Shown: in pieces, positions 902 to 4,429 of the stretch
Layout of the letters: every line of letters begins with the position of its first letter
Numbering within the stretch: the stretch's first letter is position 1
Origin: a virus
Lineage: Duplodnaviria; Heunggongvirae; Uroviricota; Caudoviricetes
Length of the DNA stretch: 4,429 bases
Virus record (IMG/VR): IMGVR_UViG_2660238209_000015
Reading direction: 5' to 3' (one strand)
Notes under the pieces: generated by a model
Told to the model about the DNA's origin: nothing
The model's database searches: none
Seen by the model: only the letters and a program-made list of their open reading frames with translations
Position numbers and translations under genes: made by a program

Positions 902-1069
902 TTTCCGGGATTTTCCTCAACAGTTGCGGGCCACGGTCCGGCCACAAGGAGAATCAAAAGAGGAGAACCGCAGCCCGCAAAACGAAAAAGGCCGCGCAGT
1001 TGCGCAGCCTTATAAACCCTGGTTAAAATCCACACGATAAAAATGACAATGCAAGTATCTCATGCTGTT

Positions 1070-1095
1070 GCCCGAACCCACTCGGGCTTTTTTTT
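1070..1095 (+). terminator. Rho-independent terminator oriented on the plus strand, opposite to the surrounding phage genes
   Basis: Stem gcccga (1070-1075) / tcgggc (1082-1087), 6 bp with 5 G:C, loop acccac, followed directly by T8 (1088-1095). In the minus-strand reading the hairpin is followed by AACAGCAUG, not a U-tract, so it is unidirectional. Confidence 0.55.
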
Positions 1096-1413
1096 GCATG
1101 TAAAAAGGCTCCTGCGATGAGAAGCCTGGATATATGCCTAATCTCTGTATACAGCATGATGCCGGGTGCCTCCCGGTGAATTCTGCAATGACCAGACAGA
1201 ATCCGCAACTTGCCTATACAATACGCAACCAAACATCTGTCATTATGCCCCGCCGCTCAGGGGGATTCATCATGCAGGATTTTTTTAACAAACGCTCAGC
1301 ATGTCAGGCAACAGTCAACTGCCTGAATTGTGAGGCATTTAACATTTCACTGTCCGGTGTCTTTCCTGTAATAAAAAGCCCGCAAAAGAGAGTCAGGGCA
1401 GATAAGTGTGGTG

Positions 1414-2745: not shown

Positions 2746-2777
2746 GGATCATTAAGCCTGTCTCTGATAGGCTCATT

Positions 2778-2796
2778 CTGCTTTTGCGCAAAGCAG
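2778..2796. promoter_or_regulatory. Near-perfect 19-bp palindrome 33-51 bp upstream of the methyltransferase start (candidate operator or 5'-leader hairpin)
   Basis: ctgcttt-tgcgc-aaagcag: 7-bp arms (ctgcttt / aaagcag) are exact reverse complements around a 5-nt centre. Confidence 0.35.
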
Positions 2797-2837
2797 TGGG
2801 CCTGAGGTTTGCTTGTGAACCCAACGCATGAGCAGAT

Positions 2838-2868
2838 GGCTGGTGGGTGCCCCTTACACCCACCAGCC
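2838..2868. repeat. 12-bp perfect GC-rich inverted repeat (stable hairpin) in the methyltransferase upstream region
   Basis: ggctggtgggtg (2838-2849) and cacccaccagcc (2857-2868) are exact reverse complements, separated by a 7-nt loop cccctta. No adjacent U-tract on either strand, so it is not a canonical intrinsic terminator. Confidence 0.5.
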
Positions 2869-2881
2869 GCCCATTTACCAC

Positions 2882-2909
2882 AAATAAAAAAGCCTTCAGG
2901 ACTGAAGGC
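2882..2909 (-). terminator. Rho-independent terminator (minus strand) at the 3' end of the small ORF
   Basis: Plus-strand gccttcag-ga-ctgaaggc (2892-2909) is a perfect 8-bp inverted repeat (7 bp effective with a 4-nt loop), preceded on the plus strand by aaataaaaaa (2882-2891), which is a U-rich tract 3' of the hairpin on the minus strand. It overlaps the stop codon of the small ORF. Confidence 0.6.
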
Positions 2910-3093
2910 GTCTGTAACAACCAAACTGATAGTCTGCCAGACCCGCCATAACCAGCTGGGTCAGTATTAACTGGCAGCGTTCGCGTGAAAGGTAAGTATT
3001 CTGCGCAATCTCCCCGACTGTCGCCGGGTCGGTAACGCTTAATTCATTAAACACCACTCTGGCGGTTTCTGTCATATCCTGCTGTTTCAGCAT
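2896..3093 (-). CDS. Small hypothetical protein (65 aa), possibly a winged-helix/HTH DNA-binding protein
   Basis: ATG at 3093..3091 preceded by AAAAGGGAAAAAGAC (GGG-type SD, ~8-nt spacer). Product MLKQQDMTETARVVFNELSVTDPATVGEIAQNTYLSRERCQLILTQLVMAGLADYQFGCYRRLQS has a helix-turn-helix-like pattern reminiscent of small PapI/FaeA-type regulators (from memory, unverified). The ORF track extends this frame to 3216 (GTG start, 106 aa), but that extension runs through AT-rich sequence and abuts terminator T1, so the shorter form is preferred. Confidence 0.4.
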   Translation of the reverse strand: MLKQQDMTETARVVFNELSVTDPATVGEIAQNTYLSRERCQLILTQLVMAGLADYQFGCYRRLQS

Positions 3094-3216
3094 GTCTTTT
3101 TCCCTTTTCCGGTTAACGTGACACACCAATAACTCTTGTCGAAAAAGCCAGCAACCTGAAAGAACGGTATTAATAACCACCAGCGAATTTATTGCGCTGC
3201 TGTATATTACGGACAC

Positions 3217-3238
3217 AAAAAAACCACCTTCCGGTGGC
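3217..3238 (-). terminator. Rho-independent terminator (minus strand) ~95 nt downstream of the Q-like gene; tR'-like candidate
   Basis: Minus strand GCCACC-GGAA-GGTGG followed by TTTTTTT: 5-6 bp G:C-rich stem, GNRA-type tetraloop, then U7 (plus-strand a7 at 3217-3223, stem 3224-3237). Confidence 0.6.
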
Positions 3239-3334
3239 TTCCTTGTGCGAAAAAACTTGCATTTCGCCTCGCGATACAGCTTTGCGAAGCTTACAGGAAT
3301 TCAAGCTGTTTCTGCGTAAAAAAGCAAGCTTTTT

Positions 3335-3877
3335 TTATCGAAATGAATCGTGCATAGGTACATAAAGCATGTGTTCAGCCACGGCTAACCAACCTGCAAT
3401 ACGTTTCTCACATGTGCTGAAACACCATTCCGGGTGAGTACGATTTAAACATTCTGCCATTTTTCTCTTACTCATTCCCCGTCCTTCGTACCTTTGCCGG
3501 AGAATATTGATTAGCCCGGGATATTCCCCAAGCACCTCACTGATAACGCGATCAATAATCAACGCCTCTGTGTCTGTACAATGTGACAACCAGCTCTTCT
3601 GCTTCCCTCTGGTCATATCCCGAAAAAATGCCTCAAGTTCCGGTTTTTCCAGCCCGGATTTCTTCATGCTGCGTAAAACCTCATTAACTGCTGTTTTCGT
3701 CAGCTTTTTCGAAACCAGTAACCGGTTAAACATATTTCCGGATTTACCCCCACCGATATACGACCACCGCCCCCACATCCGTAATTTCCCCTGGATCCAG
3801 ACTGCTTCCAGCGTGTTCAGGCGTAAATGTTCGCCGCTTTTGCCTGTAATTTCCGGATATATCATATTTACGCTCAC
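3335..3877 (-). CDS. Putative late-gene antiterminator (Q-like) by synteny; function not confirmed
   Basis: 180-aa ORF with GTG start at 3877 (the first ATG is at 3865, giving 176 aa); stop TAA at 3337..3335. It lies immediately downstream of the rusA 3' fragment with a GTGA stop/start overlap, and is followed within ~100 nt by an intrinsic terminator, then the methyltransferase, tRNAs and nanS-p. This is the position Q occupies in lambdoid phages of the 82/DLP12 type (rusA-Q-pR'-tR'-late genes). An LRMWGRW segment loosely recalls a W-G-x-W segment in Q proteins as I remember them. No search was performed. Confidence 0.5.
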   Translation of the reverse strand: MSVNMIYPEITGKSGEHLRLNTLEAVWIQGKLRMWGRWSYIGGGKSGNMFNRLLVSKKLTKTAVNEVLRSMKKSGLEKPELEAFFRDMTRGKQKSWLSHCTDTEALIIDRVISEVLGEYPGLINILRQRYEGRGMSKRKMAECLNRTHPEWCFSTCEKRIAGWLAVAEHMLYVPMHDSFR

Positions 3878-4017
3878 TCACTCTCAATTTTGTAAATCTT
3901 CACGCCCAGCCGTCCCCCAGGAACGCGCTGACCGCGCACAATATTGATTTCATCAAACTGCTCGTCGTCTATGAGAAGTCCGGCATGCGTCAGCGCATCC
4001 AGTGGTGCTTTCAGGAT
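3874..4017 (-). pseudogene. rusA: 3' fragment (47 codons plus stop) of rusA, Holliday-junction resolvase, truncated at its 5' side by the IS insertion
   Basis: The minus-strand frame is open from the IS boundary (4017) to TGA at 3876..3874: ILKAPLDALTHAGLLIDDEQFDEINIVRGQRVPGGRLGVKIYKIESE*. This aligns with the C-terminus of E. coli RusA as recalled (…FDALTKAGFWLDDAQVVDY…KGGRLELTITEMGNE), with conserved DALT.AG, LDD.Q and GGRL. No start codon or N-terminal portion on this side of the IS. Confidence 0.65.
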
Positions 4018-4071
4018 TGAACCGCCCCGGAAATCCTGGAGACTAAACTCCCTGAGAAAGAGGTAAACAGG

Positions 4072-4398
4072 ATGACTAAAAATACTCGTTTTTCCCCCGA
4101 AGTCCGTCAGCGGGCGATTCGTATGGTTCTGGAAAGTCAGGATGAATATGACTCACAGTGGGCGGCAATTTGTTCCATTGCCCCAAAGATTGGCTGTACG
4201 CCGGAGACTCTGCGTGTCTGGGTTCGCCAGCATGAGCGGGATACCGGGGGCGGTGATGGTGGGCTCACCAGCGCTGAACGTCAGCGTCTGAAAGAGCTGG
4301 AACGTGAAAATCGTGAACTGCGCCGCAGTAACGATATCCTTCGCCAGGCTTCCGCTTATTTTGCGAAGGCGGAGTTCGACCGCCTCTGGAAAAAATGA
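4072..4398 (+). CDS. IS3-family transposase OrfA (HTH DNA-binding subunit), IS629-like
   Basis: 108-aa [111 protein letters not shown]; N-terminal HTH plus leucine-zipper-like C-terminus typical of IS3 OrfA. SD GAGGTAAACAGG upstream of the ATG at 4072. Confidence 0.9.
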
Positions 4399-4429
4399 TG
4401 CCACTGCTGGATAAGCTGCGTGAGCAGTA
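4395..4429 (+). CDS. IS3-family transposase OrfB (DDE catalytic subunit), first 11 codons only; -1 frame relative to orfA
   Basis: ATGATGCCACTGCTGGATAAGCTGCGTGAGCAG gives [11 protein letters not shown], overlapping the orfA stop. The A6 run (4390-4395) at the overlap is a plausible -1 frameshift site for an OrfAB fusion. Confidence 0.7.

Follow-up and report, generated by a model that had tools for sequence, protein, structure and literature searches.

In the 4,429-nt stretch of DNA analysed here (IMG/VR record IMGVR_UViG_2660238209_000015, class Caudoviricetes; hereafter the window), a 65-aa ORF is bracketed by two intrinsic terminators, T1 and T2, downstream of a Q-like antiterminator gene. 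The locus raises the question of whether this ORF is a gene, to which module it belongs and how it relates to the methyltransferase gene that follows. A sequence-only reading had offered two possibilities, either a small regulator inserted into the Q-pR'-tR' module or a spurious ORF within a structured leader with two successive termination points. Comparison among related loci, profile searches, structure prediction and covariation analysis were used here to address the question.

Layout and prevalence of the locus

The gene order on the minus strand is the Q-like gene, the ORF region, the methyltransferase, two tRNAs, an sRNA region and a nanS-p-like esterase. The coordinates of the main features are given in Table 1.

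Table 1. Features of the window, with the basis for each assignment
Feature	Position	Strand	Basis or remark
IS3-family orfA	4072-4398	+	interrupts rusA-like gene
Q-like antiterminator gene, DUF1133 type	3335..3877	-	Pfam DUF1133 1e-110, Phage_antitermQ 1.4e-8, PHROG 753
Conserved block between Q and T1	3262..3326	-	presumed pR'/qut site
T1 intrinsic terminator	3217..3245	-	inferred tR' of the Q module
Leader of the 65-aa ORF	3094..3216	-	alignment of 31 loci
Gene for 65-aa stand-alone winged-helix protein	2896..3093	-	PHROG 331; RefSeq WP_000917750.1
T2 hairpin and U6 tract, overlapping the ORF stop	2886..2909	-	also first element of the methyltransferase leader
Structured leader RNA of the methyltransferase	2746..2885	-	conservation and covariation
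M.EcoGII-family beta-class N6-adenine DNA methyltransferase, 352 aa	1687..2745	-	Pfam N6_N4_Mtase 1.5e-41

The same 1.2 kb, covering Q to the ORF, was found at 100% identity in Escherichia coli O157:H7 chromosomes, and parts of this 1.2-kb query match 2541 of 5426 complete E. coli genomes. The ORF is also present upstream of stx in many Stx phages, in which stx lies just past the tRNAs. The arrangement of ORF and terminators is an ordinary and very common prophage feature, which the sequence-only reading described correctly, and the interest of the locus lies in its link to an M.EcoGII methyltransferase cassette.

The comparison set consisted of 33 loci with a homologue of the ORF, taken from phages, E. 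coli chromosomes and one genome per other species. The annotated phages in the set were phiP27, phiSTEC1575-Stx2k, Stx2_EH1910 and PhiR5_1, and the other genera included Salmonella, Kluyvera, Citrobacter, Klebsiella, Buttiauxella, Enterobacter, Mixta, Mangrovibacter, Scandinavium and others.

Coding status and start codon of the ORF

The ORF runs from an ATG at 3093-3091 to a TGA stop at 2898-2896 and encodes 65 aa, with a Shine-Dalgarno (SD) sequence AAGGGA (3106-3101) located 7 nt upstream. Both the ATG and a purine-rich SD are kept in 30/33 loci from many Enterobacteriaceae, with a product of 63-67 aa. The comparative alignment of the 33 loci showed a conserved reading frame with synonymous-biased substitution; the median dN/dS was 0.115 over 192 pairs, and between genera synonymous sites are saturated while protein identity is 53-86%. 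This indicates that the ORF is under purifying selection. The 65-aa ORF is a genuine protein-coding gene, as one branch of the earlier proposal had it, with its own SD.

Two other accounts of this segment were considered. If the ORF were spurious, all of 3238-2882 would be a non-coding structured leader with two termination points, and it is true that the methylase has a structured leader behind tandem hairpins even in loci that lack the ORF. Such a leader would not be expected to show the dN/dS value, the saturated synonymous change and the start codon, SD and product length conserved across genera described above, nor the PHROG 331 match and the confident predicted fold (AlphaFold pLDDT 92) described below, and the ORF leader itself has hardly any conserved structure by RNAalifold; the account is scarcely tenable. 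The other account concerns the start. It had been suggested that the real product is 106 aa long and begins at GTG 3216, directly after the T1 U-tract, with its translation coupled to terminator read-through. The frame is open in the window from 3216, and PHROG 331 aligns better with the long form than with the short form (150.7 vs 128.3 bits), probably owing to the long starts with which many deposited members were annotated. However, the GTG is not a conserved start. In-frame stops are found 2-6 codons before the ATG in phiP27 and in loci L008, L012, L013, L015, L016, L022, L023 and L028, stops or frameshifts interrupt the extension in L001-L004, L008, L010 and L011, and the upstream frame is likewise broken in phiSTEC1575-Stx2k, Stx2_EH1910 and many others. 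Most RefSeq/GenBank annotations examined use the 198-nt gene. A 106-aa product coupled to read-through of T1 was consequently rejected as exceedingly improbable.

Fold and family of the encoded protein

The 65-aa protein matched PHROG 331, a family catalogued without a function, at 1.9e-37. In RefSeq it is named either 'hypothetical' or 'TrmB family regulator', so that the gene is already catalogued and annotated, without an assigned function. An AlphaFold model based on a 26-sequence alignment (pLDDT 92.4) has three helices followed by a beta-hairpin wing, the H1-H2-H3-wing order of a minimal winged helix, and the predicted fold resembles MarR/ArsR/BlaI-type DNA-binding domains. The confident model and the fold matches bear out the winged-helix-like character that had been suggested from the sequence.

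Assignment to a known regulator family was not obtained. In the Pfam scan of the protein, TrmB (PF01978) scored 17.4 bits against a gathering cut-off of 25.6 and MarR_2 14.3 against 27; HTH_24 and DprA_WH were also under their cut-offs, and HTH_3 (XRE) gave no match. The NCBIfam scan of the protein gave no match. A sequence search against solved structures returned nothing significant, the best meaningful hit being 2obp at E = 0.08, and a PADLOC match to SWIM_XIII (E = 0.0056, 13 bits) was marginal and was disregarded. A HMMER scan of 1.84 billion representative proteins recovered only 62 relatives, indicating that the protein family is narrow.

With a net charge of about -1, the protein is slightly acidic; it has no dimerisation module, and its third ('recognition') helix is largely hydrophobic with an invariant LTQ. 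These properties, together with the TrmB and MarR scores under cut-off, make 'transcriptional regulator' a label rather than a finding, and the label is unproven. A slightly acidic protein with a largely hydrophobic third helix is atypical of a DNA-binding regulator, an observation that also counts against the overall explanation favoured below. A literature search by protein accession found no mention of the 65-aa protein. Two CDSs between an antiterminator gene and stx2e have been noted elsewhere (PMC9729726).

Antiterminator gene, first terminator and candidate late promoter

The Q-like gene matched PHROG 753, an anti-termination protein Q-like family. In the identical O157:H7 locus its RefSeq start is an ATG 12 nt downstream of GTG 3877. 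This Q-family gene lies directly upstream of T1, as in a lambdoid module.

T1 has a CCACC/GGTGG stem with a GGAA loop and A/U pairs extending the stem, followed by T7 at 3223-3217; its sequence is CAAGGAAGCCACC-GGAA-GGUGGUUUUUUUG. The 5-bp GC core is extended to 13-16 pairs, and this stem-loop with its U7 tract has the form of an intrinsic terminator. Its folding energy was -17.6 kcal/mol (z = -5.4), with 0/200 shuffles as stable. A terminator is located 77-130 nt before the ORF ATG in 30/33 loci, with stem sequences that are unrelated among loci. A loose terminator pattern applied across the window was not enriched (7 found vs 5.1 +/- 2.5 expected), so that the weight of evidence comes from comparison among loci. 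The two tandem terminators recognized by the sequence-only reading both hold up as predicted intrinsic terminators on the basis of their folding energies (that of T2 is given below) and their conserved positions among relatives.

In Stx phages, pR' is constitutive and its transcript ends at tR', as mapped by Term-seq for the Q933 type only (PMC7547250). It is established that Q proteins are specific for their own sites (restated in PMC6266700). Because Q proteins act on their own sites and the ORF follows different Q types, as described below, the late promoter must be upstream of T1. The block 3326-3262 is conserved among four DUF1133-type loci (about 81-100% identical) and holds TTGCTT, 17 nt and TTGAAT, together with two small dyads. 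A consensus scan called no promoter upstream of T1, this block included. The block is presumed to be the candidate pR'/qut location for the DUF1133-type Q, and we infer that T1 is the tR' of the Q module.

Synteny and presence of the ORF

The ORF was found to follow at least four unrelated antiterminator families, namely the DUF1133 type, a 273-aa quuQ type, a 131-aa Q933-like type and a 230-260-aa type, and at some loci inserted genes stand upstream of the terminator in place of an antiterminator. In megablast comparisons, homology with phages of other Q types begins at window positions 3225-3144, at or just after T1. The unrelated Q families upstream and the start of homology at T1 place the ORF outside the Q-specific module. 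The idea of a small gene inserted into the Q-pR'-tR' module was therefore not upheld; the ORF instead travels with the downstream methyltransferase cassette, and it is the first gene after the terminator presumed to be tR'.

A methyltransferase of 347-355 aa is located downstream of the ORF at a fixed distance of 147-154 nt in 25/31 loci, while five loci have the ORF without a methyltransferase. Conversely, among the 105 methylase loci for which 420 nt or more of upstream sequence is available, 48 have the ORF and 57 do not. The methylase thus accompanies the ORF at about 85% of ORF loci, whereas only about 46% of methylase loci have the ORF, an asymmetry that suits an accessory role for the winged-helix protein. 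The absence of the ORF from about half of the methyltransferase loci is at the same time an observation that counts against the overall explanation favoured below. In deletion variants such as L125, a remnant of the ORF 3' end is fused to the hairpin, and in L150 tR' and the T2-like hairpin are about 10 nt apart. Judged from these comparisons, the ORF is an optional insert between tR' and the methylase leader.

The second terminator

T2 consists of a GCCTTCA/TGAAGGC stem (2909-2892) with a GTCC loop, followed by T6 (2891-2886). The stem has 7 bp, including 4 GC pairs, and the U6 tract is followed by A and UUU, which is the form of an intrinsic terminator. Its folding energy was about -10.5 kcal/mol (z = -2.4), with 2/200 shuffles as stable. 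The ORF stop codon TGA forms the start of the T2 3' arm, and the hairpin over this stop codon is kept by compensatory changes in 31/31 loci examined. Outside the E. coli group the hairpin is retained with a weak U-tract (2-5 T in 8), suggesting that the conserved feature may be the hairpin rather than termination.

A T2-like hairpin is found within 44 nt of the leader anchor in 93/105 methyltransferase loci, whether the ORF is present or absent. This indicates that T2 belongs to the methylase leader. One part of the earlier alternative, a structured leader with two successive termination points, was accordingly close to the mark, since tR', a T2-like hairpin and a structured leader precede the methyltransferase in phages without the ORF; the other part failed, since the ORF is not spurious.

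The leader RNA of the methyltransferase

Conservation is higher in the spacer that separates the ORF from the methylase than in either gene. The elements of this spacer, within a leader of about 135 nt, are AAAUGGGCGG (2876-2867), a P1 hairpin (2868-2838) and a core of CAGGCCCA...GAGCCUAUCA (2804-2765). With nhmmer, the spacer was also detected in Klebsiella phage Kpn74 and Vibrio phage MAR, where it precedes methylase homologues; both phages lack the ORF. A search of viral contigs by methylase alignment returned close relatives only, and a DNA-pattern scan was needed for diversity. The pattern for the spacer core, CAAGGCCCA-N12-30-GAGCCTAHCA, gave 120 matches in IMG/VR, of which 116 were located exactly 20 nt before a methylase homologue (50-81% identity).

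Covariation was determined in an alignment of 44 diverse leader sequences. The P1 hairpin showed many compensatory changes. Chi is found on both strands in the P1 arms of the E. coli type; other clades have unrelated, fully compensated stems in place of P1. Chi as the cause of the invariant leader 5' arm was rejected, as these other clades swap the Chi-bearing stem for unrelated ones. For the invariant AUGGGC, pairing with GCYYRU is kept in 97% of cells by G-C/G-U and U-A/U-G changes, and covariation is seen as well in an alternative helix, GCYYRU:AYRRGC, where UA becomes CG in 19 sequences. Across the leader helices, 90-96% of cells were paired, compared with 28-43% when the partners were slid by 1-3 columns, and 62-88 cells were changed on both sides compared with 12-26 in shuffles, with 0/500 shuffles reaching the observed value. 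Support for a long-range helix over the bases just before the methylase AUG comes mostly from the E. coli clade.

A conserved upstream ORF starting from the AUG of AAAUGGGCGG was also considered and rejected, its length varying from 3 to more than 40 codons and its peptide being unconserved past MGG. Rfam 15 gave no match at E <= 1 over the leader in the window and four divergent loci, and neither the terminator pair nor the leader RNA was found to be described in the literature searched.

The methyltransferase

The methyltransferase of the window has TDPPYF at residues 34-39 and FMGSGS at 310-315, in the motif order of the beta class (DPPY, TRD, FxGxG). It is 94% identical to the methyltransferase of phage 1720a-02, an enzyme that has been named as very similar to M.EcoGII (PMC5778455), and through this named homologue it was assigned to the M.EcoGII family. 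M.EcoGII methylates adenine in any sequence context, is deleterious on expression and is silent in its prophage; it is active alone in vitro (PMC5778455), which indicates that the winged-helix protein is not needed for catalysis. The same study noted the prophage copies as silent and left the mechanism of silence unexplained (PMC5778455). M.EcoGIX was ruled out as the identity of the methylase, as it is plasmid-borne, and M.EcoGII is the relevant relative.

The leader of the ORF

The ORF leader of about 124 nt (3094..3216) contains a Chi site at 3184-3177 and a two-block motif, TTGCTG (3154-3149) followed by AGAGTTATTGGTGTGTCA (3136-3119). In the window the motif reads TTGCTG, 11 variable bases of fixed length and then ACAAGAGTTATTGGTGTGTCA; elsewhere the second block is ACCAGAGTTATCTGTRTGTCA. 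It lies about 45 nt before the ATG, is near-invariant from E. coli to Mangrovibacter in the 31-locus alignment and persists in homologues with just 41-44% protein identity.

The motif resembles a -35 element, a 17-nt spacer and TAT..G, with a poor -10, and the consensus promoter scan did not call it. Q-independent expression from this promoter-like motif is an eventuality that counts against the overall explanation given below. A role as the late promoter pR' was rejected on two grounds: unrelated Q families are followed by one identical motif, and phages from which the ORF has been deleted lack the motif too, although they keep Q, the terminators and the methylase. A conserved fold of the ORF leader RNA, such as one pairing CTTGCTG with codons 4-6, was also rejected, since the sole helix given by RNAalifold is weak (6 bp, -2 kcal/mol) and covers the AUG. 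No conserved palindrome was present in the ORF leader across the 31-locus alignment.

Proposed regulation of the cassette and alternatives

The explanation that we favour, with a probability of roughly 60% for the whole, is that the segment is the start of the Q-dependent late transcription unit of a lambdoid prophage, in which serial terminators and a leader RNA silence the methylase until Q antitermination, with the ORF product as an accessory. In the lysogen, a short late-promoter transcript would halt at T1, as for Stx phages of another Q type (PMC7547250). Transcripts that pass T1, or that begin in the ORF leader, would then meet T2, and the leader would pair the region just before the methylase AUG and so limit methylase translation. 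T1 and T2 in series together with the leader would in this way keep a toxic methylase off in the lysogen. After induction, Q-modified RNA polymerase would ignore T1 and T2, and the ORF, methylase, tRNAs and late genes would be expressed; in Stx phages the late genes reached by Q read-through would include stx. The winged-helix protein would be an optional accessory of the methylase cassette, most likely a late-stage modulator that binds nucleic acid or the methylase. This terminator-guarded layout matches the lysogen silence reported for M.EcoGII (PMC5778455). Besides the observations named above as counting against it, this explanation has against it the lack of a consensus promoter upstream of T1, the weak T2 U-tract outside the E. 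coli group, the five ORF loci without a methyltransferase and the activity of M.EcoGII alone in vitro.

A more specific proposition joins two parts: that the approximately 135-nt leader from T2 is a structured cis-regulatory RNA of a new class, in which the helices AUGGGC:GCYYRU and GCYYRU:AYRRGC exclude each other and gate translation of a toxic enzyme in enterobacterial and Vibrio phages, and that the winged helix is a dedicated partner of the M.EcoGII-type enzyme, a targeting, restraining or anti-toxicity subunit following a PNB-2-like logic with unrelated sequence. Taken jointly, the two parts are put forward tentatively, as a pairing that is rather doubtful.

Two further explanations give the protein a role at the DNA. 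The region may be a moron-like unit, in which the leader motif is a weak or regulated sigma-70 promoter, the ORF is transcribed in the lysogen without Q, T2 serves both as the ORF's own terminator and as a shield for the methylase, and the product binds DNA as a regulator and possibly controls its own gene at the invariant AGAGTTATCTGTRTGTCA box. Such a unit would account for two conserved blocks at fixed spacing before the ATG, retained in the 41-44% identical homologues with no convincing RNA structure, for the loss of the motif along with the ORF in deletion variants such as L125, for T2 abutting the ORF stop codon and for the presence and absence of the ORF among loci, which is typical of morons. 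However, the -35 fits the consensus at only 3/6 positions, the -10 is without the near-universal T at -7 and the scan calls no promoter, the literature search found no report of ORF expression, and the slightly acidic protein has no dimerisation module. We consider this explanation unlikely; the poor -10 and the lack of a convincing RNA helix leave the conservation of the motif unexplained, which keeps it alive. Alternatively, the protein may be a controller-type transcription factor that times or limits the methylase by binding near its own gene or the methylase leader, as might be supposed of a small protein of helix-turn-helix type whose gene directly precedes that of a methyltransferase with constant spacing (25/31 loci), with a fold like MarR/ArsR/BlaI-type DNA-binding domains. 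In many non-E. coli loci the two leaders, that of the ORF and that of the methylase, share an octamer, CAGAGTTA, but this repeat is absent from the E. coli group and no conserved palindromic operator was found. The protein is not of the XRE/HTH_3 type and belongs to no Pfam or NCBIfam family at cut-off, and the methylase cassette is common without the ORF. In addition, between the ORF and the methylase lie a terminator and a structured RNA of about 135 nt, so that methylase control looks RNA-based, and a controller is improbable.

Comparison with known systems

The locus shares with the pR'-tR' modules of lambdoid and Stx phages (lambda 6S RNA; StxS in Sp5/Sp15, PMC7547250) a Q gene followed by a strong intrinsic terminator, and in both cases Q-modified polymerase is expected to pass tR' and later terminators. 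It differs in its DUF1133-type Q and in a promoter-terminator RNA that would be only about 75 nt long if pR' lies in 3326-3262. In Sp5, tR' is directly followed by tRNAs and stx2, whereas here the ORF, a second terminator and the methylase lie between.

A small winged-helix gene directly upstream of a methyltransferase, with a Rho-independent terminator nearby, is likewise found for PNB-2 and M.EcoPA8orf6770P of Stx2 phages (PMC10810198). PNB-2 is a 1:1 specificity subunit that forms a holoenzyme with the adjacent methyltransferase and is not a transcription factor (PMC10810198). The PNB-2 locus is early-left, near int, and its enzyme is of the MT-A70 type, whereas the enzyme here is beta-class N6_N4; no homology to the 65-aa protein was detected for PNB-1 or PNB-2 (hhalign probability <1% for both), and the link of the 65-aa protein to its methyltransferase is known from synteny (25/31 loci). 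With the M.EcoGII and M.EcoGI prophage enzymes (PMC5778455), the methyltransferase shares DPPY and FxGxG in beta-class order, the 94% identity being to the 1720a-02 enzyme. The upstream ORF, terminators and leader RNA are not described in that study.

The C proteins of restriction-modification systems are likewise small HTH-type proteins encoded before a modification enzyme that is harmful if expressed at the wrong time. They are XRE/HTH_3 proteins with palindromic C-boxes in their own promoter, in contrast to the winged helix found here, which has neither character. Phage morons are similarly small accessory genes, present in some relatives, located between conserved modules and directly followed by a terminator. 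Both the terminator, T2 at the stop codon, and presence/absence polymorphism, with visible deletion scars, are found here; the terminator, however, is shared with the methylase leader and conserved as part of it, and the ORF's own promoter is only a candidate motif. TrmB, MarR and ArsR factors differ from the protein in that it has only 65 aa, no dimerisation helices, a slightly acidic character and Pfam scores under thresholds. Its nearest counterparts in size are stand-alone wH domains, among them Z-alpha, Sul7s and RPA32C.

The locus offers a concrete layout for the silence of M.EcoGII-type enzymes, consisting of a presumed tR', a second terminator and a leader that may occlude the methylase start, with release through Q antitermination. 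It also points to a very widespread small protein as the most obvious candidate modulator of an M.EcoGII-type enzyme. In Stx phages the cassette is located between Q and stx, which places the terminators and the leader in the path of every toxin transcript.

A structured leader RNA upstream of the methylase

The sequence preceding the start of the M.EcoGII-type methylase gene was more conserved than the genes on either side of it and is a structured RNA, rich in covariation, which may contain two mutually exclusive helices. No Rfam family matched this leader. Among the 120 IMG/VR matches to the leader-core pattern, which included Klebsiella and Vibrio phages, the distance from the leader to the methylase start was 20 nt in 116.

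An AUG within the invariant leader element AAAUGGGCGG opens a mini-ORF, encoding MGGWWV* in the window. Compared across 44 leaders, it had as few as 3 and as many as 40-plus codons, with only MGG conserved in the peptide. The mini-ORF is probably a by-product of the RNA motif.

The Chi octamer GCTGGTGG occurs five times inside 1.2 kb of the window, and hairpin P1 of the leader has one of these copies in each of its arms. A mosaic junction lies directly after the Chi-bearing arm in two related loci (L004 and L007), with a different downstream module (DUF3927 peptide) beyond it. The P1 stem of other clades is made up of replacement sequences without Chi.

Features annotated in the window and in related loci
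Feature	Position	Strand	Remark
AgvB (anti-GcvB) anti-sRNA match	1035-1094	+	56.6 bits, just at gathering score 56
STnc100 sRNA homologue	1096-1304	-	full-length, 175 bits
tRNA-Arg(TCT) and CAT-anticodon tRNA (pair)	1414-1490, 1571-1646	-
Methylase leader, ~135 nt	2746-2885	-	conservation, covariation
Mini-ORF opened by the AUG of invariant AAAUGGGCGG	2874-2854	-	MGGWWV*
Two-block motif, winged-helix ORF leader	3118-3154	-	nearly invariant among relatives
Region 3' of Q gene	3262-3334	-	contains a conserved block with two small dyads
IS3-family orfA	4072-4398	+	inside the 3878-4429 region
ALIL frameshift pseudoknot of orfA	4353-4429		cut by window end
Chi octamers	3184-3177, 2867-2860, 2047-2040	-
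Chi octamers	2839-2846, 2046-2053	+
Methylase leader in other loci	L035 1637-1800; L036 1600-1761; L119-L238	
Methyltransferase remnant	AP000422.1 (VT2-Sakai) 21007-21117; also NC_028660.1		examples of Q933-type Stx2a phages

Sequences from the Q gene to the winged-helix ORF

The rusA-like gene just upstream of Q is interrupted by the IS3-family orfA; in O157:H7 loci otherwise identical to the window, the RusA gene is intact at this site. The block between the DUF1133-type Q gene and T1, the presumed tR', carries the dyads AGCTT-CGCA-AAGCT and TCGC-GAG-GCGA, and no consensus match to a late promoter or qut for this type of Q was recognisable in it. Likewise, pR' and qut were not found in a published comparison for a prophage of the same gene arrangement (PMC9729726).

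The leader of the winged-helix ORF contains TTGCTG, 11 nt, then AGAGTTAT..GT.TGTCA, a two-block motif that could not be clearly assigned to a promoter, an operator or a signal in the RNA. In the ORF-less variants the motif is deleted along with the ORF.

Downstream genes and methylase remnants

The CAT-anticodon tRNA downstream of the methylase was called Met by ARAGORN, and its homologue is annotated in RefSeq as tRNA-Ile. Several related phages carry a tRNA-Arg(TCG) between the two tRNAs, which the window lacks. The STnc100 and AgvB matches occupy the site of the stx genes in Stx phages. In Sp5 of Sakai, tR' is followed directly by tRNAs and stx2. It was found that in Q933-type Stx2a phages the methyltransferase is reduced to an unannotated remnant of codons 316-352 upstream of the tRNAs, which looks like the deletion scar of the ORF-plus-methylase cassette.
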